A DNA stretch of 64,000 nucleotides, from positions 24,643,051-24,707,050 of the forward strand of contig NC_069116.1 of NCBI RefSeq assembly GCF_025612915.1, read 5' to 3'. The notes beneath the pieces are model-generated. The model searched no databases. It was not told the origin of the DNA and worked only from the letters and a program-made list of their open reading frames with translations. The DNA is from Crassostrea angulata. Its lineage: Eukaryota. Numbering within the stretch: position 1 is the first letter of the stretch; each line of letters opens with the position of its first letter. Both the position numbers and the translations under genes were made by a program. This document shows positions 5,702 through 53,554 of the stretch, piece after piece.

Positions 5702-5944
5702 CTCTGCTGTATAGTAAGTACATTGGACTGATAGAAAATACAAGGTTTCATTTATTTTTATATTATTTTTAGAGAAAACACAGAGGTGCGCTCTTAGGAT
5801 CAACAAAACCTGTGAAGGAGGGACAATCTACAATCAGAACATTTGTATCTTGTCCAATTGTGAAGTATAATGCAGCTGACCCGAAGCAAAAACAAGGTTT
5901 GGATTCTTTAATCATGTTTGTGGCTGTCCATTGTGGAAAGCAAG

Positions 5945-9908: not shown

Positions 9909-10043
9909 ATGGAAGACAACATTTTCCACAACTTTGTCTTTGTGTTGGAGTTTGATATTTTAACAAGATTTAAAGAAAAACAGTGTTGGAGAAGAAAGAT
10001 AACAGAGCATGGAGGGACAATATCCTATGTTTTTACTCCGAAG
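9909..10043 (+). CDS. PARP4: PARP4-like exon 1 (start codon; BRCT N-half: MEDNIFHNFVFVLEFDILTRFKEKQCWRRKITEHGGTISYVFTPK)
   Basis: ATG at 9909. It matches human MVMGIFANCIFCLKV...KKKL..I.ENGGKFSF. GTGAGT donor at 10044, phase 0. Confidence 0.7.
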
Positions 10044-10738
10044 GTGAGTGATTGAGTGAGTGTCTTTAGAAAGGCCTGTCTCTTCACACATCCTTGACAG
10101 ATTTATTTAAGAAAATTAAACATTTGGGTATTAAATGAGAGAATATAATCTCACCTAGATTTGTTGAAACTAAAAAACTTTGACAGGCATCTCTTCTGGA
10201 AGAAATGTCAGTTAAAATTTTCAGTCTTGATGAATCTAGCTGGTATGTATAAGCATATTAGATGATTGAGCAAGTAGATGATTAGACGCACTCTTGTTTT
10301 ACTTTACTCTGTCCCAAGTTTTTGCTTTCACCACTTTTCTCTTGATATTTTGATTTATCACATGTTTATCCCAATATACGGTGGATATCACTCATGGGAT
10401 AAATTTTTGATATTCCACTGTGTGTTCTTACGCCACGTGACGTCATAGTTAATCATTACGTAGGTTTAGACGGTTGATTGATGTAGAATGAAAAAGTAAA
10501 TAATTAATTCAGTTGAGGGGTGTTGAGATATAAATTTGAAACATTTAATGTTAAATTGTTTCAGTTATTTGTCATGAATTCATAAAAAAATGTTCTGTTT
10601 GTTAAACTTCAAGGAACTTTTTTTCCATGCGTAACGTTGTTGACGTGTTGTAAATAATGTGTTGTGCGGCTCACAATCACAATTTTTACAGCAAAAGTTG
10701 GGATTAACAAAATACTTGGTAAAACATGTGATAAAAAG

Positions 10739-10883
10739 AATCTCTCATGATTTGCGATGGTATTTGATTTTTATCCAACGAGTTGTGTGTTTTCTATCCC
10801 CTCGCCAAGGCTCGGGGATAGAAAACACACAACTCGTTGGATAAAAATCATATACCATCGCAAATCATGAGAGATCCTATATT
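10739..10883. repeat. Near-perfect foldback (arms ~65 bp, loop ~12 bp) in PARP4 intron 1
   Basis: aatctctcatgatttgcgatggtat...ctatcccc / ggggatag...ataccatcgcaaatcatgagagat. Confidence 0.85.
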
Positions 10884-11864
10884 TATACCTTTGTGCGCAA
10901 ACAATGTTCATCCACAAATATAAAAAATGTCCAGATTATCTGTTCTAAAACGCCCCCATTACTGCTTCAAGTTTCAATACACATCCCAAAATAGAAAGTC
11001 TACGGGATATTGCATTGCATCAGGCATGAAATAGCCCAGATGATAACGTTGAAAAATTGTGTGAGGTATTCCAAGCGATTTCTGAAGGTGAAAAGTTGTA
11101 AATATTTCCCATTAATAACCTCCATAAGAAATTTGTTTTTGTTCCTGTGAACTTTTATGAGTAAATGATTATATATAATGTACTATCAAAAAAGATATTT
11201 TCCCTTACATCAATTTCAACTGTATTTCTTTCACAGGTATTTGTATTTTAATCAAAAATCATAAAAAAGTGATGGAAGCAATATAGCTTGGGACATACAG
11301 TACTATGATTGCTTTACAAACAATGCATATAATTAATAGATCATCAGATTTTATCTGCTAGTAGCTAAATCTGTCAAAGGTTTGTGAGAAGATGAATGGA
11401 TCAGAAACACTGAGTTGGGAATATGGTACATAGGGGAATGTAATGAAAACATTTTGTAAATCTATAATCTATAACACCGAAAATAAGAGAGAGTGGAGAT
11501 CGAGGGAGAGAAATAGAAAAGAGACGTGTACGCAATAGCCATGTTTCTGGATGAAATCCTGATATTTTAAGGATTTTGGAAAAAATATAGTGTTCTTGAC
11601 ATGTTGTAAAAATATTGAGTCAGTTATTAACTTATTATGAACGTAGGATATTTATGTCTTTGATCTTGTTTACATTAAAGGTAACAAAATTATGGAAATA
11701 AAAAAATCTTATTTACCTGTAATTAGATTCAATATTTACTATATTAAAGTAATTCAAGATCTTGAAATACAATCTCAGGGATTATATGGAATAAATATGT
11801 ATTGCAAATACATACCGTGACAACCTATCATATGAACAGATACTGAATAACAAACATTTTTCAG

Positions 11865-12060
11865 GTAAACTTTGTGGTGCTATTTGGTGATATGTTGGAG
11901 AAATCATCGTATAAGCAAAGACAAGCTGTGAGACATAATGTTCCTGTTCTGCGCTGTGAATTCATCACTGATTGTATTGAACAGAAACAGATTTTGCCAA
12001 CAGCCACATATGCTGTTGGAGAACCAATATCTGGAAAGAATTTCAAAAAAGGACGAATAA
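11865..12060 (+). CDS. PARP4: PARP4-like exon 2 (BRCT C-half)
   Basis: Acceptor ttttcag at 11864. Peptide VNFVVLFGDM...VPVLRCEFITDCIEQKQILP. GTAAG donor at 12061. Confidence 0.7.
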
Positions 12061-12194
12061 GTAAGAGTTCTTGGAGAAATTTTTATGCATATATATAAGT
12101 CTCAATGTACCTGTATACTATATATGCCATGATACATACTATTTTGAATTCTCATTTAAGTAATTAACAACAGTACCGGTAACTTAATTTATAG

Positions 12195-12346
12195 CTAAAC
12201 AAGAAAAGACAAAAAGGTACCTCAGTGCTAGAAGACATGTGAAGAGTGTTAATTTGAATGCTATAAAGTCCTGGTCTCTGGATGATCCTGAAGCCCCATC
12301 ACACAATGATGATCAGTATGAGGTAGCCAAGTGGGTTTTGTTAAAG
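12195..12346 (+). CDS. PARP4: PARP4-like exon 3
   Basis: Acceptor tttatag. Peptide ...DDQYEVAKWVLLK matches human DFEVAKYNTLEK. Donor GTACAG. Confidence 0.6.
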
Positions 12347-12858
12347 GTACAGTGAAAATAATTGGACTTTGAAAAATTTCTTGCAATAATAGAATTATGG
12401 TACGTACTTCAAGTGACAGTGATCGATTTAATGTTTCAATGGAAAAGTGTGGTTCATAACTATTTCATAATTGCGTCACATTTTTTGAAATATGTAATGA
12501 CAGTGATTTAATGTTTAAATGGAAAAGTATGGTTCATAACTATTTCATGATTGCTTAACATTTTTAGAAATTTTAATGGTAAAATACTAAATTCAATGTT
12601 TGTATGTTATGTATATATACATGTACAATATAGGTCAGTTAATTTAATTGACAAGGATTAGTATTTTGAAACTTGAATTGAGACAGCTTATGTGCTATAT
12701 TAGAATTGACTCACCACAATGTTTGATTTCCACCCAATCCTAGTAATTCCCATATTTTATTTATATATATACATGTGATAATAAATTGATGTGCAAGATC
12801 ATAATGTTAATAAATGATATACAATTTAATTTATGATTTCTCATTATTCACTTTTCAG

Positions 12859-12951
12859 TCAACAAAAGTGATTCAGGTTATTGAGGTTCATGCGCTGACG
12901 TCATGTGACAAGTTCCGGCTATATCATCAGGAGGGACACTTGGATGGGGAG
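12859..12951 (+). CDS. PARP4: PARP4-like exon 4 (3' boundary uncertain, weak GTGATT donor)
   Basis: Acceptor cttttcag. Peptide STKVIQVIEVHALTSCDKFRLYHQEGHLDGE. An in-frame stop at 12968 forces a donor at or before 12952. Confidence 0.4.
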
Positions 12952-13164
12952 GTGATTACTGTGCTTCAATAGAACACAATCCTTCAATGATATTCCTCTA
13001 CAGGTTAAATGTAAAAATGACTCTTTTCTGTGAAGTTATGTTAAAATTAGTCCCCTTATCTTTTTTTTTTCCATTTCTATGGGAAAAAATTGATTTTTTT
13101 GTTGTTGTTTGTATAGCTGTAAGTTATTCATGAGCACTTAACTAAACATAAATTACTCTTGCAG

Positions 13165-13335
13165 CACATATTGGCTTCTGAAGGCCCTGTGGTCTGGTAT
13201 TTGGATACTGCTGATGAAGTTCTGGTTTGTTTTGAACAACTTTACAAGAAGTACACATCAGGCATGATGAATATGGAACCTTGGTACACACCTAGATTTG
13301 TCTCCAATCAAATAGGGTCACACAAACTCAAAATG
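13165..13335 (+). CDS. PARP4: PARP4-like exon 5
   Basis: Acceptor ctcttgcag. Peptide HILASEGPVVWYLDTADEVLVCFEQLYKKYTSG...KLKM. Donor GTAAAG. Confidence 0.7.
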
Positions 13336-13628
13336 GTAAAGAATTCACTACCAACAAACATTAATCAAAGTACTAAAAGTATTGATATACACTAGGCATG
13401 TTAATTTTGTATGATTCTATATCTCAAATGGTGTTTGATAAAAGCTCAAAATTTTCCTGTAATTCAATAATTCTACAACTAATTGACAATTAAACAATGT
13501 TTTAAATTCATGTTTACATTGATACATACTGTTGTAAAATGTCACAAAAGATAAGTGGAGTTTGATGTGAAATCACTCTGTACAACATTGTGGCAGAAAT
13601 TAAGGGCTATAGGTTCTTTTTTCTTCAG

Positions 13629-13766
13629 ACATTGGATGACCTTTGTTTGATGAACAGTTTCCTTGATCCAGATGTCGGACAGTTTGTGGAGATGATTTGG
13701 AAGGAAGCCACCCAAGAGGCTGAGAAAATGCTTACTATGTCTATGGAACATATCAGATCTGATAAG
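13629..13766 (+). CDS. PARP4: PARP4-like exon 6
   Basis: Peptide TLDDLCLMNSFLDPDVGQFVEMIWKEATQEAEKMLTMSMEHIRSDK matches human SDLVEMIWAEALGHLEHML. Donor GTATGC. Confidence 0.75.
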
Positions 13767-13961
13767 GTATGCATCTTAATTTATCATTGTTGCTTGTTTC
13801 AGGTAAAGCTTAAAAAAGCTGTTGTTAATGTGCAAAACAAAGTGTATGCATTTTTTTGCTCTTACAGGTAAGTATTTGTTCTTTTTACATGTAGTCCTTA
13901 TGTCAAATGGAAAATAAGTTATGAAAATGTGTAACGTAATCTTTTTAAATCTCATTTGTAG

Positions 13962-14141
13962 GTAGATGATGCCATGGTCATTTTGCAACAGATTAAGCAG
14001 ATGAAGAAAGAGAATCAAGGAGACAACCGCTTGGCTGGATTAGTGGAAGAGTTCTATAATGAGGCTCTCCCCCACAAACAACAGTACATATCACAAGATC
14101 TAGATCCACAAACCATCTCCCAGAAACTAGATTTGTGTCAG
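13962..14141 (+). CDS. PARP4: PARP4-like exon 7
   Basis: Peptide VDDAMVILQQIKQMKKENQGDNRLAGLVEEFYNEALPHKQQY...LDLCQ. Donor GTACTG. Confidence 0.75.
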
Positions 14142-14159
14142 GTACTGTGGTTTCATTAA

Positions 14160-14300
14160 TTTTCGTGGGTATCAATTTTCGTGGATTTTCTGAAAACCAC
14201 AGTTTCAAGGATGCGTAATTTCGTGGCTAATGATCCTATCAATACAAAATGTTAGTTGAAATTGAACTTCAATGAACATTTAATTTCGTGGGTTGCATTA
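14160..14300 (+). repeat. Dispersed ~140-bp repeat, copy 1 (second copy at 58425-58560)
   Basis: About 85% identity. Shared motif ccacagtttcaaggatgcgtaatttcgtggc.aatga.cctatcaatacaaaat.ttag. Confidence 0.6.
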
Positions 14301-14604
14301 AAATTTGACTGGCACACAGACAGGAAAACATGGTATACTATGAATGTTTTCTCCACATCTTGTGCAGATTTTTATTTGGGATACTGAAATGTTGCAGTAT
14401 GCTTTTATGTGTACTGAAAGTTATATATTATGGTGGCAATTAAAAATCATGGCTAGTTAACTATGTACCTGTTTTCTGAAGTCTTCTCAGTTTTTATTCA
14501 AGCTATTAAAAGCAGTTTGCAGTAAATTGCAGTTGGGCCATTTAACATGCTCATATTGATATTAATATTTTTCATGGTCTTGCATTTATATCTATCTTTT
14601 GCAG

Positions 14605-14765
14605 TTGATCTATGATGTTTTGGCTGTAAGTGAAGCCACAGATTTTTCTCCTGCTGCCAGCACTGTTGCTAAGTACAGGGCCCTAAGATGTCACATGACA
14701 AAATTGGACCTGTCTGCCAGCAAATATCAAGTCATACAAAATATTCTCAAGGACAGTGAACAAAG
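14605..14765 (+). CDS. PARP4: PARP4-like exon 8
   Basis: Peptide LIYDVLAVSEATDFSPAASTVAKYRALRCHMTKLD... matches human KYRALRCKIEHVEQ exactly. Confidence 0.8.
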
Positions 14766-14937
14766 GTGGTTTTTATTGTCTTGTTATTAAAGTAGTTGCC
14801 TTTATACTTTATACTCCATTTTAAAGAGAGTGTGTAAACAGTCATCCTGATAATCATGCACAATTGTATGTGTATGTTTTCTCAAAGTTTTGTTTTTCTT
14901 ATCATCATGTACAAGTGTTGCTTTTGTCTTTTTAAAG

Positions 14938-15075
14938 CATTGCAGTTTACAGTGTTTTTGAAGCTGGGAGAACCATGGAGGACATTTTGTTTGAGAGTAC
15001 TGCTGAATGTATTGGAAACACACAATTATTGATGCATGCTTCAGGACCCCATAATCTCTTGGGAATTCTATCAAG
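14938..15075 (+). CDS. PARP4: PARP4-like exon 9 (PARP catalytic, His of H-Y-E triad: LLMHASGPHNLLGILSR)
   Basis: Acceptor ctttttaaag. Matches human LLHGSPVQNIVGILCRG. Donor GTAAAC. Confidence 0.8.
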
Positions 15076-15298
15076 GTAAACTTGTCATTCATTGGTGAAT
15101 ACAAGCTAGGTTTCCATGATTGACATTTTTTCTATGTAAAGTACTTAAAGGCCATAACAAAATTTGTGTTTAATTCAATTCATATATTAAGTATAAAGAA
15201 TACATGTAGATAACACCTTTTGATTGATAATTTGAGACTATAAACACTGCAATAGTGTGCAATTACAGTTTGTGATTCAATGAATGATTTTCTCTTAG

Positions 15299-15397
15299 GG
15301 GACTACTTCTTCCTCAAAATGTAGTGGAGGAACACGGAGTGAACAGGACAGATGGGGGGAAACTGGGATATGGAATCTACTTCTCCAATTCATTCAA
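15299..15397 (+). CDS. PARP4: PARP4-like exon 10 (GLLLPQNVVEEHGVNRTDGGKLGYGIYFSNSF; catalytic Tyr)
   Basis: Matches human GLLLPKVVEDRGVQRTDVGNLGSGIYFSDS. Confidence 0.85.
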
Positions 15398-16087
15398 GTA
15401 AAAAAAAAATTGCATTCTTCTGAATGTTTAATTATACTGAATGTATTATATTTTCTTGACCTTCATATGATTTTTCAGTAGAAATATGATTTAATTTTCA
15501 AAATTATAAAATATATTCTTTTAAAACTTATACATATATTGGTCTGTATTCAGAGATTGTCATAGAAATATGATGAAAAAAATACAAGCACATGGATACA
15601 TGATCACATATCATACTTATAAATAATATATCAAATTGAATTCATAAAGTTGTATATATGTTCTCCAGTGTAATTCACAAGTTCATTGACGCTTTAGTTT
15701 TGTGCTCAGACTGGGTAATATTCCATTTCCTAACCTAACTTTTGATACCCAAAACGTTACCCAAACACCAAGATACATGCAGATGGACGAAATTGTCATT
15801 TATTAAAAAAGATGACAGGAAAATCAAATCAGTAAAGGGGAGATCACTCATACACAATACCATAATACATGATCTCCCCAGTGTATCAAATTACATTAAT
15901 ATTAAGAAAAAAAACCCAATAATCCAGTATCCAAATGATAAAAATGTGCAAAAAGGGTTGCAGACAAAAGCTGCCACAGTACAAACAGAATTTTTGTACC
16001 CACTCCCACCAATTCATAAAATTGGATTTGCATGTGCCTTTAGTATAAAAGTTATAACTTCTGACCTCTCTCTATATTGTAACCCAG

Positions 16088-16271
16088 CACATGCCTTCAG
16101 TATGCTGTACCAAGTGTTGTGACGGGAATGAGAATGCTGGTAGTCTGTGAAGTGGCGCTAGGAAATTGTATGGACTTCACCACCCTCCAGTCAGGTATAA
16201 CAGCACCACCTGGTGGCTACCACAGTTGCCACGGAGTGAAGACCACAGAGAACGATCCAACAGAGTTTTTG
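16088..16271 (+). CDS. PARP4: PARP4-like exon 11 (...RMLVVCEVALGNCMDF...APPGGYHSCHGVK...)
   Basis: Matches human TRLLLICDVALGKCMDL...APPGYDSVHGV. Donor GTAGGT. Confidence 0.8.
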
Positions 16272-16567
16272 GTAGGTCTCATGTTATTTAAGTTCTAACA
16301 GTTATTTTTATCATACACTTGCATGTATGTAGATGTAACTCTCATTCAGTCAAATCATAAAATATTAAAAATGTGTTTGAAGAAACTGTAATTAATTTCA
16401 TTTTTTTTTCATACTGTGTAAAAAAAGACTACCAGTACCTTTAAAGAAAAATGTGAATTAGACTTATTTTTAGTACTTGCTTTAAAGCTTCCTTGATACC
16501 CAATATAATTTTATATTTTTCCTCACAATAACAATAACAATGTATTTGTAATTCTTATCAATGACAG

Positions 16568-16715
16568 GATGATGAGTTTGTGATATACAGCACATCACAG
16601 CAGAGAGTGAAGTATGTAGTTCTGTTCACACTCCCCAGTGATCCACCCCTTCGACTGATCCAAACCACCCCCGAGGAGGAGGAGGAAAACATGGAGGTCA
16701 CTGCAAGCTCTGTTG
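16568..16715 (+). CDS. PARP4: PARP4-like exon 12 (DDEFVIYSTSQQRVKYVVLFTLP; catalytic Glu)
   Basis: Matches human DDEFVVYKTNQVKMKYIIKFSMP. Donor GTAAGA. Confidence 0.8.
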
Positions 16716-17007
16716 GTAAGAGTTCTGTTTCTCTCTTATAATTGAATTTAATTTTTAAAAAATAAACATATACATCAAATGTGATTGTTTTGTCTGTCTG
16801 TCTGTTTTAAACAAGAAATTTGTTGATTGTTATTAAAACAGTTTATCAAGAACATATATCATGGGCATTGAAGGAGATAATAAAGAAGTCTGTTACCAGT
16901 ATTTCATTTTCTTATTCTTTGAAATTCATGGTATGGTAAGAACTGGTATATACAATTAATATAATATAAATTTATTTTTGATGTACATGTACTTGTGTAT
17001 CTAATAG

Positions 17008-17141
17008 ATATAATGGAATTAAGGGACCTGCCTGACCCCTTCTCCAAAGTGACCAGCGGTTTGATCAGCCAGAATAAGTCTGTTCGAGTCCCACTGAAAG
17101 CAGTCCATATCCGGGCCAAGGTCATTGATATGGTGGCAAAG
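17008..17141 (+). CDS. PARP4: PARP4-like exon 13
   Basis: Peptide ...PLKAVHIRAKVIDMVAK matches human PLEDVHIKGRIIDTVAQ. Donor GTAAGA. Confidence 0.75.
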
Positions 17142-17391
17142 GTAAGACAGATACTGTGTGAAAATGCATGCTCCATGTGTTCATTGGAAAAATTTAAAGA
17201 TTGGATTGTTCATGTATGTCATAATGAATGTATAATCTGTCTTATCGGTAATCATGTCTTGATATGATATAGTAATTTGATTCTCCCATCCTTAATTTTT
17301 TTTTTTTTTCATCCTTCAAATTTGAGAGTGATACATGTAGCTAGCAAAAGCAAACTCTTTCAATTCATTTTTTTTTAAAAATTCTAACCAG

Positions 17392-17518
17392 GTTGTTGTC
17401 TTGCAATCTTACAAAAACAACATGACAGAGCCAATCGAGGCGAAGTATGTCTTCCCTCTGGACGAGAAAGCTGCTGTGTGTGGATTCGAAGCATTCATAA
17501 ATGGGAAACACATTATAG
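17392..17518 (+). CDS. PARP4: PARP4-like exon 14 (VIT domain; EAKYVFPLDEKAAVCGFEAFINGKHII); GC-AG intron follows
   Basis: Near-identical to human EAKYIFPLDDKAAVCGFEAFINGKHIVG. Only the donor AG|GCATGT at 17519 preserves frame into the next exon. Confidence 0.7.
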
Positions 17519-17733
17519 GCATGTACATTGAAGTTAATATTCCCTTCAAGTTTCGATTAAAAGCTAAGAAAAAGATGTCTTTTATAGGGATCAATACAAA
17601 AAAAATTTATCATCCGAAACCTTTTTTTAAACATGTGAGTTTCAATTCCTATAGTTCTTTGAAAAAATTGTGTTCTACGGATTTAAAGTGGTACATGTTT
17701 AAAAGTTTTACCATTGGTTGTGGGGATTTTTAG

Positions 17734-17825
17734 GAGAAATCAAGGAAAAGAAGACAGCACACCGCGAGTACAGAGAGGCCATCAGTAAAGGTCACGGTGC
17801 ATACTTAATGGACGAGGAGGAACCA
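17734..17825 (+). CDS. PARP4: PARP4-like exon 15 (EIKEKKTAHREYREAISKGHGAYLMDEEEP)
   Basis: Matches human EIKEKEEAQQEYLEAVTQGHGAYLMSQDAP. Perfect GTAAGT donor. Confidence 0.85.
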
Positions 17826-18600
17826 GTAAGTGTCAACTCAAGAGTCATGGAAGCTAGAAGAGATTAAAAGTTAAAAGAAAGTGTTTCAGTATGATGATGT
17901 GGATAAGTTTACATGTGTAATGCACATGCAATAATGCTATGGTGTAATATGAAAAAAAATTTATATACCTTGGGTGGAACACAGATAATACGGTATCTGC
18001 TTTGACTGTTCTTGATGTCTATTATTACTTATTAGGTTAGTTACTGACTGACTACAGAAATATATCGGGTTATATATTGGGTTACCTATATACATGTATA
18101 CAAGTTGCCTAACATCTCATCCAATTTAACTTATTTAAACTCTTCAAAATTATCAATCTCACCTTTCAAATACTCTTTGAAAATCTACACTAATGTTTAC
18201 TTATAATGTTTTGTTGCCATTCAATTTTAAACGCTTTCTCCCTTTCCTCTGCAGAGATTTGAGCAAATCTCAACACTGCTGTTTTATTCTGCTCCAGACA
18301 CAACAATGTGACGTCAATATTCAAAGGGCAACAAATCTAGTTTTAAAGAATTTCAAAGGGCAACTACTCCAAATATTTTAAGAACTTATGGCATGCGGAT
18401 TTTGTATTATATAACATGAAATTTTGAAATGAGAAGGCGAAGCGTTGGCCAATGACGGCCATTTTGCCTAATATTAATTCTCACAGAACAAACATAGAGA
18501 TATATTAGGCAGTCACGTGCTATGTTTAAACTAATGAAAGTATGACATTTCAGTCCGAGGGAAAACAAATAAATTTAATTTACCTGCTTATTGCTTTTAG

Positions 18601-18765
18601 GATGTATTCACTGTGAGTGTCGGAAATCTACCGCCCGATTCGGAGGTTCTGATAAAGGTGACCTACATCAGTGAGCTTGGGGTGGAGGGAGACGGCATAG
18701 CCTTGACCATCCCTGCCTCAGTGGCCCCGTGGGTCAGAGACACGGCCCTAGCTCAGCAGACCCAG
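18601..18765 (+). CDS. PARP4: PARP4-like exon 16 (DVFTVSVGNLPPDSEVLIKVTYISEL...)
   Basis: Matches human DVFTVSVGNLPPKAKVLIKITYITEL. Confidence 0.85.
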
Positions 18766-18907
18766 GTACTGATCCTAGGTGTATAAATTGCATTCATTGT
18801 CCTCATGCATCAGTTATTTCTTTGGAATGTGTACAGCTTCAATATAGATGGCAGGTAGTGAATATGGAAAGTTTTCATGCTGCTTAATTTTGACAAACTA
18901 TTTGCAG

Positions 18908-19030
18908 GCAGAGACATCAGTCCTTCAGATCAGTGACTTAATGGATTGTCAGATCTCTCTGCAAGCTGCCATAGAAATGCCTTTTGAAATAAGGGAATTG
19001 AATTCTGGAACTCATCGACTCAAGTACAAG
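18908..19030 (+). CDS. PARP4: PARP4-like exon 17
   Basis: Peptide ...SLQAAIEMPFEIRELNSGTHRLKYK matches human SLTMSIEMPYVIEF..THELKQK. Donor GTTCGA is weak. Confidence 0.65.
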
Positions 19031-19185
19031 GTTCGAGTTTATATCACTTTTTTTTTTTTTCTTCATGTCATTTATGATTTACACAAAGATTTATGATACA
19101 TGTTTTGTTAACGACATAAAGTACCAGATAACTCTTGATTGTCTTAAGGTTTTTTTTGGCTACAAAGTATTTTGTTTATTAATAG

Positions 19186-19320
19186 AAAACTGATACCAAG
19201 GCTGTGGTGGAGATACCAAAGAAGTCCAACTTTGCCGAAGGATTCCAGCTGCTGATTAAGTTGGCAGAAATTCATGTTCCGCGCATGTGGGTGGAATGTC
19301 ATCCAGAAAGAGATGTGCAG
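19186..19320 (+). CDS. PARP4: PARP4-like exon 18
   Basis: Peptide ...AEIHVPRMWVECHPERDVQ matches human AAYLPRMWVEKHPEKESE. Donor GTAAGA. Confidence 0.8.
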
Positions 19321-19476
19321 GTAAGAAGCATTGTAGAGGACAAAAATAACCAATTTTACTATTGCTTGAATAAAAAAAAAAATTAAAATTCATAGGGATT
19401 GAGAACTTAAATTGCTTAAGGACACAGGGTCTGAAATTTTTTGTATAAATTAATGGTTGACTTTGAATGATTACAG

Positions 19477-19596
19477 GCCTGTATGTTAGCTTTTTACCCT
19501 GAATTTGAGGCAGCAATCGATCCTAGCCCAGAGGTTGTATTCCTTATGGATTTATCCAACTCTATGAAAGGGGACGCATTTAGAGATTCCAGAAAG
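19477..19596 (+). CDS. PARP4: PARP4-like exon 19 (start of vWA: VVFLMDLSNSMKG)
   Basis: Matches human EACMLVFQPD...VIICLDCSSSMEG. Confidence 0.8.
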
Positions 19597-19940
19597 GTAT
19601 ATCTGTTATCCATTTATTGATATCTTTCAATATACATGTATGATAATTACAATTACATGCAGTTGATCTAGTATGCATTGGACATGAAGATTCGTCTGTT
19701 GAATGGTTTTGTAATTCTTTTATCTATTATTTGGTTATTCATGTATTAAATAAATTCCTTTTGTTAGCCAACAAAAATGAGCATATCAATTCTAGCTCCC
19801 AAATTACCTAACAAACAGTACTTTAATTTTTTCAAGGACTTATTTTTTTTATTGGGGGGGGGGGGGGGGGTAGGGGGGCCATTTTTATTTTTTCATGGTG
19901 ATTTAAAAATATTTAAAAAATTCTTTCATTCTTACATCAG

Positions 19941-20081
19941 GTCTTGCTGCTGGCACTAGAAAATCTTCCTGAGAAAGCTTGCTTTAACATCATGACATTT
20001 GGATCATCCTTTAGGGAGCTCTTCCAGTTTCCTCATAGAATTACAAAGAATTCAACTAATGAGGCCATGAAATATATCGAG
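19941..20081 (+). CDS. PARP4: PARP4-like exon 20 (vWA)
   Basis: Peptide ...FNIMTFGSSFRELFQFPHRITKN matches human VNIIQFGTGYKELFSYPKHITSN. Confidence 0.75.
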
Positions 20082-20361
20082 GTTTGTTTAGACTTGGTTG
20101 TACAAGGATAAAGGCTCAATTTTCTGACATGTTGAAAATGCATGTAACCATTGTCATGTACATGTATTTATGCATATAATGTTCATTACACATGTATGAG
20201 ATTTCTTAAACACATGTGCTATACCTAGTGTATAACAATTAAGTTTACACATCAAGTAACCGTAGAATTTTCTTTTTATATATGTATGTTTGTAATATAC
20301 ATGTATATTACATCTATTATTCATCTGATAAAATATTTGTATTATCATGTTATTATTTCAG

Positions 20362-20546
20362 AGAGCCAATCCTGTGATGGGCTGCAGTGATGTGTTATCT
20401 CCCCTGAAATCTCTGTACTTACTAAGTCCAGCAGAGGGCAGTAGAAGCATCTTCCTGATCTCTGATGGATTCGTAGGAAATGAGGGGCTTTTTGAAACTG
20501 TTGCCAAACATTCCTCCAAAAATAGGCTGTTCTGCATGGGTGTTGG
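20362..20546 (+). CDS. PARP4: PARP4-like exon 21 (vWA: IFLISDGFVGNEG...RLFCMGVG)
   Basis: Matches human ILLVSDGHLQDES...RLFACGIG. Donor GTAAGT. Confidence 0.85.
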
Positions 20547-20860
20547 GTAAGTAAACATGCTCTATGTTACAGACTGGTAAGTGTGTTTGTTCACCTGATA
20601 GAAATTATAAAATAATAGTGAAAATATTTGTATATTATACTTGTGTTTCTAAAACCTTTAGTTTGAATATGCTTGATGTTGCCAATAAAGATACACATCC
20701 CATAATTGCAAGATTTATCCTGAATATCTGAAAGATATTTCTGTGCTTTATTAAACATTCAATAACACCAGTAGTGAACATTGATAAAATGGTTGGAAAA
20801 TGGAACAATTTTAAAATGATCTTTTTATTAATCAAAAATGTTGTGGTGATATCATTTTAG

Positions 20861-20960
20861 AAGTAATAGGGACAGTCATACATTACGGAGTTTAGCTAAT
20901 TATGGAGGTGGGACATATGAATACTTCAACAGCAAAACCAAATCTAACTGGCAGTCAAAG
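20861..20960 (+). CDS. PARP4: PARP4-like exon 22 (SLANYGGGTYEYFNSKTKSNWQSK)
   Basis: Matches human ILSQCGAGVFEYFNAKSKHSWRKQ. Confidence 0.85.
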
Positions 20961-21062
20961 GTAAATAACAGGTGGAACTTTTTTTCATGTTAAAGTGTTT
21001 ATTGTAATGATTGGATTGGATTTGAAGAATATTGCTAACTTATTTTTATAGGTGCTTCTTAT

Positions 21063-21104
21063 AGAGAGAGAGAGAGAGAGTGAGAGAGAGAGAGAGAGAG
21101 AGAT
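21063..21104. repeat. (GA)n microsatellite
   Basis: agagagag...tgagagag run. Confidence 0.95.
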
Positions 21105-21154
21105 GGGTTTTTTCCAGGGTACATAAGTGTATGCTTCTGTGGGTGTATTTACAG

Positions 21155-21325
21155 ATTGCATTACAAATGGACCAAGCTACACGGCCTGGGATCTCCCAGG
21201 TGCAGGTGGAGTGGGGCCCGCTCACTGATAAACTAGATCCACCCCTTCAGGCTCCCTGTAGGATCCCCAGCCTGTTCAGTGCAAATAGGCTTGTGGTGTA
21301 TGGATTTGTCAAGAATAGCACACAG
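21155..21325 (+). CDS. PARP4: PARP4-like exon 23
   Basis: Peptide ...APCRIPSLFSANRLVVYGFVKNSTQ matches human APAQVPSLFLNDRLLVYGFIPHCTQ. Confidence 0.85.
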
Positions 21326-21627
21326 GTATGTTTTGAAAGAATGACATTTTTTGTTAATTTACATGTAGGTATGCACAGTGATTAAATTACTATGCAATTC
21401 GTTGTTGATTTAAAGTGGGGTTTTTTTTTCAAACCAAAATACATTGTACAGATTTCAAGGGGAGATAATTGTGAAGCAGTCTAGGAAATAAGTTTGATAT
21501 TTGATAAGTAAAAGTGCTTGTACATGTATATAAAAACTAATATAGGTTTATTATTTAGGAACTATAATCATTTGTGTTGATTTATTATATTTGAAAGATT
21601 ATTTCATTCATAGTTTATTCTTTATAG

Positions 21628-21708
21628 GCAATTTTAAAGGCAAAGGTTGATGAACAGGAATTTGAAACAATTGTTTCTACAACAGAGCTGAACTTCACAG
21701 AGGGAAAG
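21628..21708 (+). CDS. PARP4: PARP4-like exon 24
   Basis: Peptide AILKAKVDEQEFETIVSTTELNFTEGK matches human ATLCALIQEKEFRTMVSTTELQKTTG. Confidence 0.85.
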
Positions 21709-22160
21709 GTAAAGAAGCATTAATATGACAAATGGTATCAAATTTTCTGTTTAATCACCATGCAAAACTACAGTATTAAGGTAATAATATACAGGGCAAA
21801 TATAGACTGACCTTGCTCCACTGTCACCAAAATATTTTCTAATCACTCAACTCATTCCTCGGCTCAAGTACTTTAAAGAAATTAAAGCACATAAAAATTT
21901 GAGGTAAAACCTCAGATTTGAGGCTGAGTATTGACTTGAGGAAAGTGACGACGGAGCCGTAGATTTACAGGTTGAAAAGGAAGTTTCATAAGTGTAAATA
22001 GATGATTATTGACCAATACCTACAAACTGCTATGATTCTTGAAATAGTCAATGTTAAGATTGGTAGAGTTTTGAGTATTTCAAATGTCATTTAATTTCAT
22101 CTATGAACATGAACTGAAAGATTTAACATTTGCTATGCACTTTCTGTTCTGTACCGTTAG

Positions 22161-22241
22161 ATGCTGCATCAGTTGGCGGCCAGGGCTGTTATAAGGGATT
22201 ATGAGGACGGGGTTCTGAGTGACAGCAAACTTCACCACAAG
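22161..22241 (+). CDS. PARP4: PARP4-like exon 25
   Basis: Peptide MLHQLAARAVIRDYEDGVLSD matches human MIHKLAARALIRDYEDGILHE. Confidence 0.85.
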
Positions 22242-22485
22242 GTATGGCACTGATCATGCACACTGTAATTCTTCATATCTACATCTTATATACATTAAAA
22301 TAAATCACACATGTTAAAATTATTCAGGATCCCCAATTCTCTCTGTTAAAATCATCTTGCATGTTAGTGAAACATCAAAATAATTTGGTTTGTAAAAGTA
22401 AAATTTGAAATTTGACCAGAGTTCTTGTCAAATAAATCAAGATCTGGAATTCGATTTTACTGATGAACTGGGTTTTTTCTTTCAG

Positions 22486-22587
22486 TTAATTAAACAAGAA
22501 AGAAAGCAGCATATCATTGAGCTCAGCAAAGAGTTTGGAATTGTGACTCCATACACCAGTTTTGTAGCCATAGAAGAGAGGACAGAG
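22486..22587 (+). CDS. PARP4: PARP4-like exon 26
   Basis: Peptide ...GIVTPYTSFVAIEERTE matches human SLITQFTSFVAVEKRDE. Confidence 0.8.
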
Positions 22588-22848
22588 GTAGAATATAAGG
22601 GATCTTTCACTGGGTCATGTTTGATATTTTGAAATTGCAAAAATTGTACCAGAGCAGTTTGTGGCAATTGTATGGAACATTGCAAAGTTCCTGAACACCT
22701 GATATTTTATATTTTAAGTACTGATATATGTACTTTTGTATTTGCAAATATGGTTTATGATGAATATACATTTTAAAAACAATGTACATGTATGATCATG
22801 TGTATTACCTGTAACTAAAAAAATATAGAAAATGATTTATTATTTTAG

Positions 22849-22953
22849 GGGGAAACAACTGAGGGCCCAAGTATTGAAGAGCTAGTAAACAATGAATCTG
22901 TGGATAATCTTACCTACATGGGATGGATCAATGCGGATAATATGGATGAAAAG
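22849..22953 (+). CDS. PARP4: PARP4-like exon 27
   Basis: Peptide ...VDNLTYMGWINADNMDEK matches human VDFLPYMSWQGEPQEA. Confidence 0.65.
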
Positions 22954-23819: not shown

Positions 23820-23966
23820 GATCCATTGGAGTGTGTAGAGGAACTACTACATAGGGCAAGCATTGCTGAGAGCTTCTCGCAGCTGGAGGTGGAGAGGTGC
23901 TACCTGTCTGTGCTGGATTACAGAAAGGATCTGATGCAGGAAGACAACAGGGACATGCTACAAAAG
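23820..23966 (+). CDS. PARP4: PARP4-like exon 28 (lineage-specific linker)
   Basis: Open frame with good acceptor and donor. Phase-consistent. Confidence 0.55.
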
Positions 23967-24749: not shown

Positions 24750-24914
24750 TTCCTAAACAGCTTGAGGTGCGAACTCTGACTGGGAGGTCCATTCCTGTTG
24801 TGGCCGGCACAATGGCTCAATTAAAGTTAGAAATCATGGAGAAAGAGGGTCTGCCTGAGAGCAGCATACGATTAATTCATCATGGAAAACAACTAGAGGA
24901 CACAGACAATTTAG
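24750..24914 (+). CDS. PARP4: Ubiquitin-like domain, N-part (KQLEVRTLTGRSIPVVAGTMAQLKLEIMEKEGLPESSIRLIHHGKQLEDTDNL)
   Basis: Clear ubiquitin-fold signature (compare MQIFVKTLTGKTITLEV...[24 protein letters not shown]). It is in frame with the upstream PARP4 exons. Confidence 0.65.
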
Positions 24915-25653
24915 GTCATCTATTAATTTGTGATTTTTGTGTGTATTAAGTAACGTTTATTTATGCCAGATAAATGCCTGTAGAAACATGATTAGATTAA
25001 TCAAAAACTGAAACTTTGAAATAATTATTTGACAATTAAGTCTGAAAAAACCCAAAATATGTACTGTATCAAGAGATTGTTTGTTTATCATTATTCATAT
25101 ATGAAGCTTGAAATACGGTACATAGAATTCAAGAGCATTAAATATAAAAAAAAAAGTATTTGATCATTGTTAGTAACAATATAGTACATGTACTGCATAT
25201 ACCTCACTATACAATTTGGGCATTTGTTGTGATTTAATATTATACCAAAGTATATGCATGTTCACTGCAGCATTGTTCATGTATATAAACTGAACATATG
25301 TACATGCATATGTACTGTAAACTAACTTTTATTCGCATGCGAGAAAATCCCGCTGTTCGCAACAGCCTTGTTGAAGCAAGTATTTCTCACCGCCGACCAG
25401 CTATTTCTCTGGTGTATATTTTTTTAAGTAATCTGTGACTTGAATGCAAAAATTAGTTGCTGCAAAAGGTTTTATCTTTGGTAAATCGCGAAATAAAGTT
25501 GTCGCGAATAAAAGGTGGTTTCAGTATTTCATATAAATACACTGTACTAAGATTATGAGGAATATGATAATGTTGAGCAACATCACAATATTCCTTGTAA
25601 CCTTTGCAGGCTACCTACAATGTACATTCATTTATACTCCTATGGTTTTCCAG

Positions 25654-25772
25654 ATATGAGAGAACATTCCATTATTTTTATGGTTCAACGTTTGAGAGGA
25701 GGTGCACCTCCTCCTACTATGCATCACCAGGCAAGCTCTAGTCCAAGTGATACCCCGATCTACAGTGTAACG
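25654..25772 (+). CDS. PARP4: Ubiquitin-like domain, C-part ending RLRGG (DMREHSIIFMVQRLRGGAPPP...)
   Basis: Compare ubiquitin KESTLHLVLRLRGG. Perfect GTAAGT donor at 25773. Confidence 0.65.
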
Positions 25773-28939: not shown

Positions 28940-28942
<3 letters not shown>

Positions 28943-28975
<33 letters not shown>

Positions 28976-29081
28976 ATTCTGATCACATTTTGTCCGTCGT
29001 CCGTCTGTCCGTCTGTCTTACCGTCCGTCTGTCCGTCTGTAAACTTTTTACATTTTGAACTTCTTCTCCAAAACTGCTTAT

Positions 29082-29113
<32 letters not shown>

Positions 29114-29300
29114 TTATGGGAGGGCAAATATAAATTGCAAAAATTAAAGTCCGATCTGTATTCAAAGCGGAGAAAACCTTGAAAGTGTAGAAAAAGGGGG
29201 GTGCATTTGTAAAAATCTTCTTCTCAAGAACTACCGAGGCAAATTCAACGTACTTTAGCATAAATTATCCTTATGGGAAGGAAAATATAAATTGCAAAAA
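28943..29300 (+). mobile_element. Pearl-like TIR element, 5' portion only
   Basis: It shares the first ~150 bp (ttagctcacctgagctgaaagctcaagtgagctattctg + (GTCCGTCT)n) with the element at 50214. No matching 3' TIR is found. Confidence 0.5.
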
Positions 29301-41921: not shown

Positions 41922-44636
41922 GAATACAAGAAAAGTTTGGTGGATCAGCAAGAAGGACCAAATGTAATAGCTGAACAGTTGAATGATGTTGGCAACATCG
42001 CAGGTGTGTCAATAACAGCAGTACTCAATGAATCAAACTTAGATAATGTAGAGTTTGACATCGATGTGACACAAATGGAAAATGAGCCAGATGAAGTTGT
42101 AGAAACTTCCTCTCTTAAGGAATTAAATCAGATTTCAAAACCAACAATTCAAAGTTCCAGTGCTTCTAAGAAATGGGGGTTTTCCTTAGAAGCTGCTTTA
42201 AGTCCTACCCTTCAGACATACAGTTCCACCTCACCAGTCTTCAGTCCTGCTTCACCAGCATATGGTTCTACCTCTGCAGGATTTTGCCCCACCTCACCAG
42301 CATACAATCCCACCTCACCAGCATACAGTCCCACCTCACCAGCATACAATCTCACCTCACCAGCATACAGTCCCACCTCACCAGCATACAATCCCACCTC
42401 ACTAGCATTTAGACCTACCTCACCAATCTTAAAAGTGTCAAAAGCATTCAATCCCACTTCACCAGCTTATCTTTCTCCATCTATCACTCTCCGTCCCACT
42501 TTTCCAGCAATCTGTCTTAACTCCATATCACAAACATACTTCTCCACTACAGCAGCAGTCTCTCAAACCGTGCCACCACAAAGTTTCACTGGCAACATAG
42601 ATCAGAAAGCAGACCAAGAATATTCAGATGATGATATTCATGTTGAATCTGACAGTGAAGATGATGATTTTGAGGTGAATGATGACAGGGGAAGTAGTTT
42701 AGAGAGAAGACCTAGACCAATAGACAAATGCTTTGATGAAAATGAAGATATTGAGGAGAATGAGAGTAGTGCTAATATAATTAAGAGATATGGAGAACAA
42801 GAAAAATCTAATTATTCAGAAGGCAGGGGTTCAGAAAAAAGAAATAGATATTTGCAAAGTGAAGATCAAAGTTTTAAAAGTAGTAACAGTCCAGTTTTAA
42901 AGAGAAGAGGAAGGAGTAGAAACAGGATATATAACAGTAGACAAGAAGAAAGAGGAGTCAGAAGTTGTGATAGGAGCTGGAATAGAAGAGACAGAAATAG
43001 TGATAGAAGCGGAGATAGTAGCACCAAAAATATGGATAGAAGCTGGGATAGTATAACCAGAAGCAGAGATAGTAGCACCGAAAGTAGGAATAGGAGCTTG
43101 GATAGAAGATCCAGAAGTAGGGATAGAATCAGGGTTTCTAGATCCAGAATAAGGGATAGAAACTGGGATAGTATAACAAGAAGCAGGGAAAGTAGCACCA
43201 AAAGTAGGAATAGAAGAGACAGAAGTCATAATGGGACCTTTGATAGAAGATCAAGAAGTGGGGATAGAAGCTGGGATAGTATAACCGGAAGCCGGGATAG
43301 TAGCACCAAAAGAAGGGATAACAGCTCCAGAAGTAGGGATAGAAGCTGTGATAGTATAACCAGAAGCAGGGATAGTAGCACCAACAGTAGGGATAGAAGC
43401 TTGGATAGTAAAACCAAAAGCAAGGATATTAGCACCAAAAGAAGGGATAGAAACTTTGGTAGAAGGGACAGAAGTAGGGTTAGAAACTTTGATAGTATAA
43501 CCAGAAGCAGGGATAGTAGCTTGGGTAGAAGGGACAGAAGTAGAGATATGAACTTGGATAGTAGAACCAGCAGTAGGGATAAAAGATCCAGTAGAGATAG
43601 CAGCAGTGATTGCAGCACCAAAAGTAGGGATAGAAGCTTGGATAGAAGAGACAGAAAATGTGATAGAAGCTCGGATAGTAGAACCAGAAGTAGGGATAGA
43701 AGCAGGGATAGTAGAACCAGAAGTAGGGATAGAAGCAGATATACAAGAACCAAAAGTAGAGACTGGAGCTGGTATAGAAGAGACAGAAGTTATGATAGGA
43801 GCTGGGATAGAAGAGACCGAAGTAGGGATAGGAGCTTGGAGAGTAGAGACAGAAGTTATGATGGGAGCTGTACTAGGAAATCAAGAAGTACGGATAGAAG
43901 CTGGGAGAGAAGAGACAGAAGCTGGGATAGGGAAAATAGAAGAAGAGAAAGAAGAGACAGAAGTAGAGATAGATGCATGGATAGCAGTAGAGATAGAAGC
44001 TGGGATAGAAGAGACAGAAGATGTGATAGAAGCTGGGATGGAAGAAGCAGAAGTAGGGATAGAAGCAGGGATATTAGAACCAGAAGTAGGGATAGAAGCA
44101 GAGATACTAGAACCAAAAGTAGAGATTGGAGCTGGTATAGAAGAGACAGAAGTTATGATAGGAGCTGGGATAGAAGAGACCAAAGTAGGGATAGGAGCTG
44201 GGAGAGTAGAGACGGAAGTAGGAACAGAAGCTGGGATAGAGAAAACAGAAGAGATAGAAGAGACAGAAGAAGGGATCAAAGCTGGGGTAGAAGAGACAGA
44301 AGCAGGAACAAAAGCTGGGATAGTAGAGTCAGACGCCGCAATAAAAGCTGGGATGAAAGAGAAAATAGAAGAGATAGAAACATTTACAGAAAATCCAAAA
44401 GAAGAGATTGGAATTGGGAAAGTAGTAAAATAGGTAGTGATAGAAGCTGGGATAGAGACAGAAGCATTAAAGATAGGAGTAAAAAATTGTATGGAAAGAA
44501 AACAAGAGGCAGGAAAAGAAAAACAAGTAAGAAAAGTGATGATAGTAAGATGCCACAGAGAACCAAAGAACCGTATAATCTGAAGGGAACTCAGTTTGAA
44601 CTAGAGCTATCAGAAGAAGGTGAGATAATGGATTAA
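41922..44636 (+). CDS. Large low-complexity exon (acidic N-part, ~10 Pol II CTD-like heptads, ~600-aa RS/RD/W region) ending in stop
   Basis: The 899-aa ORF opens immediately after an acceptor (ttatattatag|GAA) at 41921. It carries ~10 Pol II CTD-like heptads ([18 protein letters not shown]) and a long RSRDRS/DRSW-repeat region. The in-frame TAA at 44634 is followed by AATAAA at 44649. An alternative GTGAGA donor at 44620 would continue into downstream PARP4 exons. Confidence 0.6.
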
Positions 44637-50213: not shown

Positions 50214-50246
<33 letters not shown>

Positions 50247-50338
50247 ATTCTGATCACATTTTGTCTGTCGTCCGTCCGTCTGTCCGTCCGTCCGTCTGTC
50301 CGTAAACTTTTCACATTTTCAACATCTTCTCAAGAACT

Positions 50339-50370
<32 letters not shown>

Positions 50371-52554: not shown

Positions 52555-52798
52555 GTACATGTATAAGTCATGCAAACTCAATTTATAGAAGATTATTGCT
52601 TTTAAGAGAGTTTGTCATTTAATGAACCTTTAATAAATATTCTTGGCAAGAACTGACTGCGTTTATTTTTGTTATTACTAGTATTTGTAGACAGAAAAGT
52701 GCAACTTGCTAGAGCTAAGTGATAATATTCTTGTCCTTACAAATCATAAGAATTAGAAATGTGATAGTCATTTAATAATTTAAATTGCATTTATGCAG

Positions 52799-52898
52799 GA
52801 TGGACTGTGGAGACTTGATAAGGATCTCGCTGAGGGATTAGCAATCAGTGCCGAAAAACTGGAACAGTTACTGAAGAATCAAGGCTTTCTGTCACTAT
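52799..52898 (+). CDS. PARP4: PARP4-like exon (MVP-binding region: DGLWRLDKDLAEGLAISAEKLEQLLKNQG)
   Basis: Matches human DGFWKLTPELGLILNLNTNGLHSFLKQKG. Donor GTAAGA. Confidence 0.7.
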
Positions 52899-53228
52899 GT
52901 AAGATAATACATGCAACATATTAACATTGTGGAAGTAATATCCTGCTAGCTATTTTAGACCATTACCTGCCTGTGACATTCAACACAGAAATATTTGATA
53001 GAATATTTGCAAAGGAAAAAATGTTAAATTATTTAGAATTTTTTCTCAAAATTATGGTACTTTTGATATCAAATTATTTCCCGGTACATGTACTACCTCT
53101 GATACAGAAAATGACGTAAAACAGAGGAACAAAACACAATGCATTGTTCTTGCATGTGTTTTAGGACCATCAATAATCATAATTCAAACTTTTTGTACAT
53201 TGAAGATAAAATTATTTTTCTTTCTTAG

Positions 53229-53554
53229 CAAAATCCATTCAGAGTGAGCTGTTACCTGTGATGGCCACTTTTCTTGTTGGTATAATCAAGTTTATGCATG
53301 AATTCAAAGAAAGAAAACTTCCAAAGTGGCTGTGTTGCTGCGAACATCTTCTTGACATATCCCCAAACATTTCTTCGGTGGTAGTCAGTTTTAAATGTAT
53401 GAAAGAAGTTGTCAGCATTGGGTTTGATTTTCCACTGGAGGCATCCATTCAGTTGGGAAATCGTAAACCAATATCGACTCCTTACATCAGAGATTTGGAT
53501 CTTGGGAAAAACCTGACACACCTTGTGGATTGCCTGTTACAGTCACTGTTCTAA
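53229..53554 (+). CDS. PARP4: PARP4-like terminal exon (MVP-binding domain) with stop
   Basis: Peptide ...LLPVMATFLVGIIKFMHEFKERKLPKW...ASIQLGNRKPISTPYIRDLDLGKN... matches the human PARP4 C-terminus. TAA at 53552-53554. Confidence 0.75.

Follow-up and report, generated by a model that had tools for sequence, protein, structure and literature searches.

We analysed a window of 64,000 nucleotides of Crassostrea angulata (contig NC_069116.1, positions 24,643,051 to 24,707,050 of the forward strand; positions below are counted from its first letter) and found in it a PARP4-like gene in which two exons encode a ubiquitin-family domain. This ubiquitin-like domain (UBL) is internal to the protein and lies where the ITIH-like module meets a long disordered tether. 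Our preferred reading, for which we see the scales as evenly balanced, is that the UBL would act as an integral and mostly uncleaved ubiquitin mimic, bringing ubiquitin-binding partners to the PARP4 enzyme module. The analyses below show the steps of this architecture, and from sequence comparison we infer the role of the UBL.

The UBL exons (24750-24914 and 25654-25772, plus strand), once joined and translated, gave exactly the peptide that a first-pass annotation of this DNA had read as a ubiquitin fold spread over two in-phase exons (PKQLEVRTLTGRSIPVVAGTMAQLKLEIMEKEGLPESSIRLIHHGKQLEDTDNLDMREHSIIFMVQRLRGGAPPPTMHHQ). That claim is upheld by the Pfam ubiquitin profile PF00240 (gathering cutoff 25.4 bits), which scored 36.4 bits (E = 4.4e-9) on the isolated peptide and still 30.5 bits within the 1420-residue gene model. 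The top matches of the peptide among sequences of solved structures were ubiquitin itself, with mono-ubiquitin at about 42 bits (E about 5e-10). The alignment covers the whole domain with two gaps of three residues, at the end of strand 2 and in the 3/10 helix, and 31 of the 70 residues counted on it are identical (44%). The UBL retains L8, I44, V70, K27, K33, K48, R72, L73, R74, G75 and G76 of ubiquitin; the recognition patch formed by L8, I44 and V70 is present (L, I and V in the alignment). Ubiquitin K6, K11, K29 (Glu here) and K63 are replaced, and H68 (Phe here) and L71 are altered. The RLRGG codons were found at 25689-25703 and those of QRLRGG at 25686-25703, both on the plus strand, and the motif is indeed internal and followed by APPP, as had been claimed. 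Peptides spanning the GG-Ala junction would read LRGGAPPPTMHH and LRGGAPPPTMHHQASSSPSDTPIYSVTEYK.

To place these exons in a gene, exon anchors were obtained by tblastn with the PARP4-like proteins of Solemya, Batillaria and Acropora, and the exons were then joined according to their splice sites and phases. The matches formed a colinear series of plus-strand exons from about 9921 on, and the Batillaria UBL mapped to 24767-24901, behind the post-vWA exons. The assembled model has 32 exons from an ATG at 9909 to 44619 (plus strand) and contains no stop codon. In its first 1420 residues Pfam found BRCT (3-94), the PARP catalytic domain (395-568), VIT (628-738), VWA (876-1030) and ubiquitin (1305-1366). 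PARP4 proteins were the top matches of the model, with E down to 1e-213, and candidate catalytic H-Y-E residues were picked out by eye in ...LLMHASGP..., ...GYGIYFSNS... and ...DDEFVIY..., aligned with the Solemya and Pomacea motifs. The features of the model are as follows.

9909..22953, plus strand: exons 1 to 27, encoding BRCT, PARP, VIT, vWA and the rest of the ITIH-like module, to ...TSFVAIEERTE / ...LTYMGWINADNMDEK
23820..23966, plus strand: exon 28, helical linker (DPLECVEELLHRASIAESF...), with phase-0 junctions on both sides and a tblastn match of the Sinanodonta protein P0141
24271..24358, plus strand: exon 29, linker (VLERSDKFFSSQHSEKARTLQQQFHKYLS), with a phase-1 end right before the UBL
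24750..24914, plus strand: exon 30, the N-terminal three quarters of the UBL (IPKQLEVRTLTG...GKQLEDTDNL), about ubiquitin residues 1-56
24915..25653, plus strand: intron within the UBL, with a weak donor and alternatives at 24929 and 24938; absent in Plakobranchus
25654..25772, plus strand: exon 31, the last UBL strand and tail (DMREHSIIFMVQRLRGG), then APPPTMHHQASSSPSDTPIYSVT; donor GTAAGT, phase 0
25689..25703, plus strand: RLRGG codons, with Ala as the next residue
25773..41921, plus strand: 16-kb intron with a pair of 21-bp satellite arrays in opposite orientation, each about 4 kb long
41922..44619, plus strand: exon 32, disordered tether of about 899 codons, with a phase-1 end and donor GTGAGA

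The splice sites around the UBL are an acceptor at 24750 (...ttcctcccag/TTCCTAAACAG), a donor at 24914 (TTTAG/gtcatc), an acceptor at 25654 (ttttccag/ATATGAGA) and a strong donor at 25772 (ACG/gtaagt). Splice phases agree from 24358 (phase 1) to 24750, from 24914 (phase 1) to 25654 and from 25772 (phase 0) to 41922; the last of these was the only strong phase-compatible junction, with a donor matching 6 of 7 consensus positions and a pyrimidine-rich acceptor. The UBL exons are accordingly in frame both with the vWA and linker exons and with exon 32, which supports the first-pass view that they belong to the phase chain of the PARP4 orthologue. When exon 29 is joined straight to exon 32 the frame shifts and a stop follows after 17 codons, and therefore, if the junction of 25772 with 41922 is correct, the UBL exons are needed to read exon 32. 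We found no ATG in the open frame upstream within UBL exon 30. The in-frame donors 24929 and 24938 were set aside: either would give a loop exceeding that of ubiquitin, whereas the bivalve orthologue from Sinanodonta has its loops shortened just as they are with the donor at 24914, which we favoured on this ground. Elsewhere in the gene, the intron after 17518 (17519-17733) is apparently of the GC-AG type with donor ATAG/GCATGT, and this join was the only one restoring the conserved VIT-domain sequence ...GKHIIGEIKEKK... / ...FINGKHIIGEIKEKK... For annotators, these results mean that the UBL exons are part of the PARP4-like gene and not a separate ubiquitin-like gene.

The UBL is found at the same place in other PARP4-like proteins. 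A word-indexed protein database contained PARP4 fragments of up to about 1207 residues, full-length PARP4s seemingly being outside its range; among 120 listed PARP4 matches from it, Batillaria attramentaria BaRGS_008286 was the only carrier of PF00240, and a search of it with the spliced post-vWA and UBL peptide returned polyubiquitins only. HMMER was then run exhaustively over 1.84 billion cluster representatives with the Batillaria protein, from VIT to its end, as query, and retrieved full-length PARP4-like proteins. The carriers of a UBL include the molluscs Biomphalaria glabrata (A0A2C9KRG3), Plakobranchus ocellatus (GFO43316.1), Batillaria attramentaria (BaRGS_008286) and Sinanodonta woodiana (KAL3858028.1, 2293 residues), and also the protists Euglena gracilis (EG_transcript_154), Diplonema japonicum and D. 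ambulator, the last two as open reading frames (ORFs) of transcriptomes. A local scan of 14 proteins located a single UBL about 130-190 residues past the TSFVAIE motif in most of them, the exceptions being P0189, with two UBLs, and a few without a regular-expression match to TSFVAIE. In the proteins of Sinanodonta, Biomphalaria, Euglena and Diplonema, Pfam detected all five domains (BRCT, PARP, VIT, VWA and ubiquitin), and the partial Batillaria and Plakobranchus models are consistent with the order BRCT-PARP-VIT-vWA-UBL.

Alignments through the domain gave the same picture. Residues 5-1369 of the C. angulata model align with residues 12-1385 of Sinanodonta P0141 in a single BLASTP alignment, at 46.6% identity over 1382 residues, which ends at RLRGG; the Biomphalaria protein likewise aligns through the UBL, at 39.8% identity. 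The alignment of Nematostella PARP4 covers the exon 28 linker and ends at model residue 1297, the boundary of exons 29 and 30. At the Plakobranchus genomic locus the UBL lies in one exon. The intron ahead of it is of phase 1 and interrupts the sequence exactly 8 residues from TLTG, just as in C. angulata; after the UBL exon come a GTAAAA donor and an assembly gap. These comparisons show the BRCT-PARP-VIT-vWA-UBL architecture to be inherited and no local accident. The domain is not peculiar to this gene, as it is present in public predicted PARP4-like proteins of molluscs, Euglena and Diplonema. The UBL-bearing PARP4 is an existing, barely described kind of protein, to which the C. angulata gene adds a member. 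We found no paper on the UBL of mollusc PARP4 in the library searched, and the proteins are already public as automatic predictions; 'ubiquitin-related domains' have been mentioned in two Acanthamoeba clade-5 PARPs (Perina et al. 2014).

The distribution of the UBL among PARP4 proteins is uneven. In the sequences sampled, no UBL was found in PARP4 of Branchiostoma, Nematostella, Lytechinus, Antedon, Apostichopus, Sycon and Tubulanus, in that of one shark and several teleosts, or in that of the bivalves Magallana, Saccostrea, Mytilus, Ylistrum and Potamilus. Orthologue comparison, which the first-pass annotation had proposed, gave the UBL in Sinanodonta and the gastropods named above and not in these five bivalves. 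Its statement that vertebrate PARP4 is not known to have a UBL agrees with the vertebrate sequences sampled and with the published domain map of human PARP4, which reads BRCT-WGR-HD-ART-ITIH-like-disordered linker-MVP-interacting domain; in primates the linker shows positive selection (PMC10450202). In a rough neighbour-joining tree, made without bootstrap, the C. angulata gene grouped with Solemya and Sinanodonta, its closest relatives by identity (47% and 46.6%), and the UBL-less bivalve PARP4s stood apart from this group and adjoined the UBL-bearing gastropod ones. The tree suggests that bivalves have two lineages of the PARP4-like gene and that the UBL was lost at least once. Perhaps vertebrates lost an old module, a possibility raised by this distribution.

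Among the relatives, two proteins deserve a separate description. P0187, from a 29-kb contig of GCA_041445565.1, is a PARP-VIT-vWA-UBL protein of 1455 residues whose UBL ends in KLRGG-P; its gene is intronless and lies among tightly packed, slightly overlapping genes, in what does not seem to be an animal genome. P0189, from an ENA contig (930 residues), has VIT/vWA and two tandem UBLs, the first with a degenerate tail (LKSRPSS) and the second a near-canonical ubiquitin ending in RLRGG-P.

The fold of the domain was examined on the Sinanodonta UBL, which has loops shortened as in C. angulata and which was modelled with an alignment of 13 PARP4-linked UBLs. The AlphaFold2 model is a beta-grasp, with a block-mean predicted local distance difference test score (pLDDT) above 90 over residues 21-90; the tail after RLRGG has low confidence, with a pLDDT of about 57. 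Compared by Foldseek with ubiquitin structures, the model gave a target-normalised template modelling score of about 0.8 and a root-mean-square deviation of 1.5-2 Å. The C. angulata UBL itself would, by extension of this model, also adopt the beta-grasp fold.

We compared the junction after the RLRGG tail in 15 PARP4-linked UBLs. The GG pair is retained in 11 and lost in 4, the latter being Batillaria (RLRAEE), P0179 and D. ambulator P0238 (both RLRGS) and P0206 (RLRSA). Proline follows GG in 7 of the 11 (Sinanodonta, Euglena, D. japonicum, P0187, the P0189b domain, P0203 and P0218); other residues follow it in Biomphalaria (GG-L), Plakobranchus (GG-G) and P0239 (GG-R). Linear ubiquitin-proline fusions are the classical exception that deubiquitinases leave uncleaved, and a fused ubiquitin that cannot be removed becomes a degron via K29 and K48 (PMC9703124). 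In the PARP4-linked UBLs K29 is mostly lost; K48 is retained in C. angulata and Sinanodonta and is Arg in Batillaria, P0187, P0203, Euglena, P0206 and both Diplonema species. Taken together, GG-Pro, the loss of K29 and the change of K48 to Arg look like selection for an attached ubiquitin-like surface and tail that would not trigger degradation. Because most relatives with the tail have GG-Pro and four have no GG, a cleavable junction is not conserved among the orthologues and cleavage is not the conserved role. The first-pass annotation had offered two functions for the domain. A deubiquitinase cleavage site fails as a conserved function, though cleavage may occur in C. angulata, where the next residue is Ala; a ubiquitin mimic fits the comparative data better than cleavage does, the function itself being a suggestion from these sequences.

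From these observations we propose the following working of the protein. The UBL forms an integral part, about model residues 1299-1369, of a PARP4-like protein of more than 2300 residues, placed right after the VIT/vWA module and a short helical linker and opening the long disordered tether to the putative MVP-interacting domain. It would stay mostly uncleaved in the chain as a built-in ubiquitin mimic and would not mainly be a processing site. The recognition patch, K27, K33, K48 and the exposed RLRGG tail could dock ubiquitin readers onto the PARP4 enzyme module, candidate partners being proteasome or p97 adaptors and proteins with UIM or UBA domains. Alternatively, the UBL could accept ubiquitin chains at K48.

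Several points weigh against this proposal. The residue after GG is Ala in C. angulata and not Pro, and deubiquitinases might cleave there. The fold was modelled on the Sinanodonta orthologue, 45% identical, and carried over to the C. angulata UBL. The exon chain of C. angulata is a prediction from splice signals, phase and homology, in which the donor at 24914 (TAG/GTCATC) is weak and the in-frame alternatives at 24929 and 24938 score equally. The animal orthologues are all gene predictions; transcriptomes are the source of the Euglena and Diplonema sequences only. Finally, the UBLs of molluscs and protists need not share one origin.

The first of these points leads to the best surviving alternative, that the UBL is a processing site at which deubiquitinases or viral LXGG proteases cut after RLRGG, parting a BRCT-PARP-ITIH-like-UBL half with a free GG end from the tether and the MVP-interacting domain. 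Natural ubiquitin fusions processed after GG are found in UBA52, RPS27A and FAU. In C. angulata the QRLRGG tail is complete, R72, L73 and R74 matching ubiquitin, the Ala after GG is permissive and the recognition patch is retained; the prediction for the Sinanodonta orthologue gives a disordered, accessible tail; Biomphalaria, Plakobranchus and P0239 also have a permissive residue after GG. Moreover, it has been proposed that viruses cleave or modify the linker of human PARP4 (PMC10450202). However, the closest full-length orthologue, Sinanodonta, and six other relatives have GG-Pro and four have no GG at all, and the body of the UBL is only 44% identical to ubiquitin, with H68 and L71 altered. 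The three prolines past the Ala may also hinder cleavage. On balance we consider processing as the main role unlikely, though worth keeping in mind. A bolder version, which we regard as a long shot, is that RLRGG-Ala would be a regulated 'tripwire' at which a deubiquitinase or a viral LXGG-specific protease severs the PARP4/ITIH-like module from the vault-tethering tail, and that the freed 150-kDa fragment with its ubiquitin-like GG end could in principle undergo activation and conjugation as a giant enzyme-bearing ubiquitin-like modifier. If this were true, the GG-Pro of the relatives would be the 'locked' state of the same switch.

If, as in our preferred reading, the UBL is mostly left uncleaved, it could still be a built-in degron, extended at K48 by E3 ligases like Ufd4 or TRIP12 and giving the protein a regulated short half-life. 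K48 is there in C. angulata and Sinanodonta, and degradation of fused, non-removable ubiquitin via K29 and K48 is established (PMC9703124). Nevertheless, K29 is Glu here, the Arg at position 48 in many relatives looks like avoidance of chain building, and the ubiquitin-fusion-degradation pathway was defined for N-terminal and not for internal ubiquitin; such a role for the UBL therefore seems improbable. The weakest alternative, that the exons lie outside the mature PARP4-like mRNA as a nested ubiquitin-like gene, a captured ubiquitin pseudo-exon or an over-read open frame, could appeal to the predicted nature of the gene model, to the weak donor at 24914 and to the polyubiquitins returned by the first protein search with the spliced region, but is very improbable given a UBL exon without an initiator ATG, phases that fit on both sides, a frameshift on skipping, colinear full-length alignments through the UBL to two independent mollusc gene models, an intron position and phase in common with Plakobranchus, and the same domain order in the transcript-derived Euglena and Diplonema ORFs.

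Comparison with known systems helps to place the protein. Clade 5 PARPs are defined by BRCT, PARP, VIT and vWA (Citarelli et al. 2010), and with human-type PARP4 the C. angulata protein has the same order of these domains, about 38-40% identity over about 1200 residues, and also a long disordered linker, after which lie tentative, weakly detectable exons for an MVP-interacting domain. It differs in adding the UBL, YSPTSPA heptads and a region rich in RS and RD. Vertebrate PARP4 proteins are also annotated with the Pfam families PF26156 and PF26166. The other UBL-bearing PARP4-likes have the same domain order and the same spacing from TSFVAIE, and usually retain RLRGG or KLRGG; differences are the Ala after GG in C. 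angulata, in place of the Pro of most relatives with GG, and the extra intron within the UBL. The closest of them is 46-47% identical, and all are known from sequence alone.

Rad23, ubiquilin/Dsk2, parkin and OASL likewise have a ubiquitin fold built into a larger protein with the L8/I44/V70 patch free for ubiquitin receptors, and OASL, an enzyme-like protein of innate immunity with UBLs, is a comparable case. The UBLs of these proteins are usually terminal and have normally lost the RLRGG tail, whereas the C. angulata UBL is internal with its tail intact. In polyubiquitin, UBA52, RPS27A, FAU/FUBI-eS30 and the ubiquitin insertions that occur in cytopathic pestivirus polyproteins, an RLRGG body runs on into another polypeptide, as here, where the next residue is again not Pro. 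In the fusion precursors, however, ubiquitin is N-terminal or in tandem and near-canonical, while the C. angulata UBL has about 1300 residues ahead of it and 44% identity, and its relatives, unlike the precursors, mostly have the cleavage-blocking GG-Pro. The RLRGG tail is shared with ISG15 too, but ISG15 consists of two tandem UBLs with a free or processed C-terminus, and here there is one internal UBL whose best matches are ubiquitin. Of the DNA-damage-type PARPs, PARP4 is understood least. In primates its linker between the ITIH-like module and the vault-binding domain evolves fast, and in PARP4-likes of molluscs and euglenozoans a near-complete ubiquitin occupies this very place, which offers a concrete, testable link between the vault PARP and the ubiquitin system.

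Past the UBL, exon 32 encodes in order an acidic stretch, about ten YSPTSPA heptads and a long region rich in Arg, Ser and Asp. The heptads (YSPTSPA / YNPTSPA, 42217-42425) resemble the C-terminal domain of RNA polymerase II, with a Pfam RNA_pol_Rpb1_R match at E = 1.7e-10, and the roughly 500 residues after them are rich in RS, RD and RSW repeats built from DNA repeats of 33, 66 and 99 bp. Sinanodonta P0141 has past its UBL the same order as exon 32, with a disordered region, YSPTSPSYSPLSP, an RS-rich region and the C-terminal domain. This vault PARP would accordingly bear a tail like that of the polymerase and like SR proteins. PARP4 linkers also hold an acidic DMGF(x)LFD motif resembling the C-terminal tail of ribosomal P-stalk proteins (Batillaria P0075 at about 1158, Saccostrea P0120 at about 799, and the fish proteins P0020, P0068 and P0087), and in Euglena P0204 a region of this type at residues 1611-1650 matched Pfam Ribosomal_60s with E = 1.3e-8. 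A strict regular expression did not find the DMGFxLFD motif in the six-frame translation of the window.

To look for the end of the gene, we made a profile from the MVP-interacting domain of fish PARP4 and extended it by iteration over 79 PARP4 sequences. Splice signals alone gave no exon chain between 44619 and 52784, and the model stops at 44619. Two tentative exons were found downstream.

52784..52921, plus strand: tentative exon, with provisional boundaries, in which the MVP-interacting domain would begin (QDGLWRLDKDLAEGLAISAEKLEQLLKNQGFLSL); ranked first by the iterated profile among six-frame ORFs of the window (E = 0.0012)
53229..53551, plus strand: tentative last coding exon (...LLPVMATFLVGIIKF...DLDLGKNLTHLVDCLLQSLF, then stop), with a phase-1-compatible acceptor and a weak profile alignment when joined

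Joined together, 52784-52921 and 53229-53551 scored 21.2 bits against the profile, a weak match. Neither the Sinanodonta C-terminus alone nor a crude profile of heterogeneous PARP4 tails detected the downstream exons in the window. The gene may thus end near 53.55 kb, on weak colinear evidence. The next gene downstream, on the same strand, encodes Tfb4 (TFIIH p34-type); an exon was found at 63562-63700 (Pfam Tfb4, E = 1e-16), and the gene probably spans 61.9-63.8 kb.

The DNA of the window is AT-rich and intron-rich. In the 16-kb intron after the UBL exons, Tandem Repeats Finder located the arrays of the 21-bp satellite at 30314-34242 and 34883-38222, about 4 kb each. Their consensus units are exact reverse complements, and the arrays thus face each other head to head as a palindromic pair, about 640 bp apart; their GC content is about 50% against a background of 33%. 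The second array has a higher-order period of 105 bp, and all three plus-strand frames are open in it. A tandem repeat of about 167 bp stands on both sides of exon 32 (40268-41359 and 50465-51161), and a short ORF (...SVRLSVCKLFTFS...) is repeated at 28903-29179 and 50244-50447; these are probably copies of one family of interspersed intronic elements. Also intronic are imperfect tandem repeats of 31-33 bp at 48003-49472 (units such as CACAGGAACATATCTCACATTTCTCATCACTGT), with all plus-strand frames open and a strongly negative GC skew. Transposon remnants lie upstream of the gene: long ORFs at 3-1662 (plus strand), reverse transcriptase-like by eye and with no Pfam match in the pieces tested, and at 5912-7330 (plus strand) an ORF of 473 residues that gave weak matches to DUF659 and hAT-dimerisation domains.

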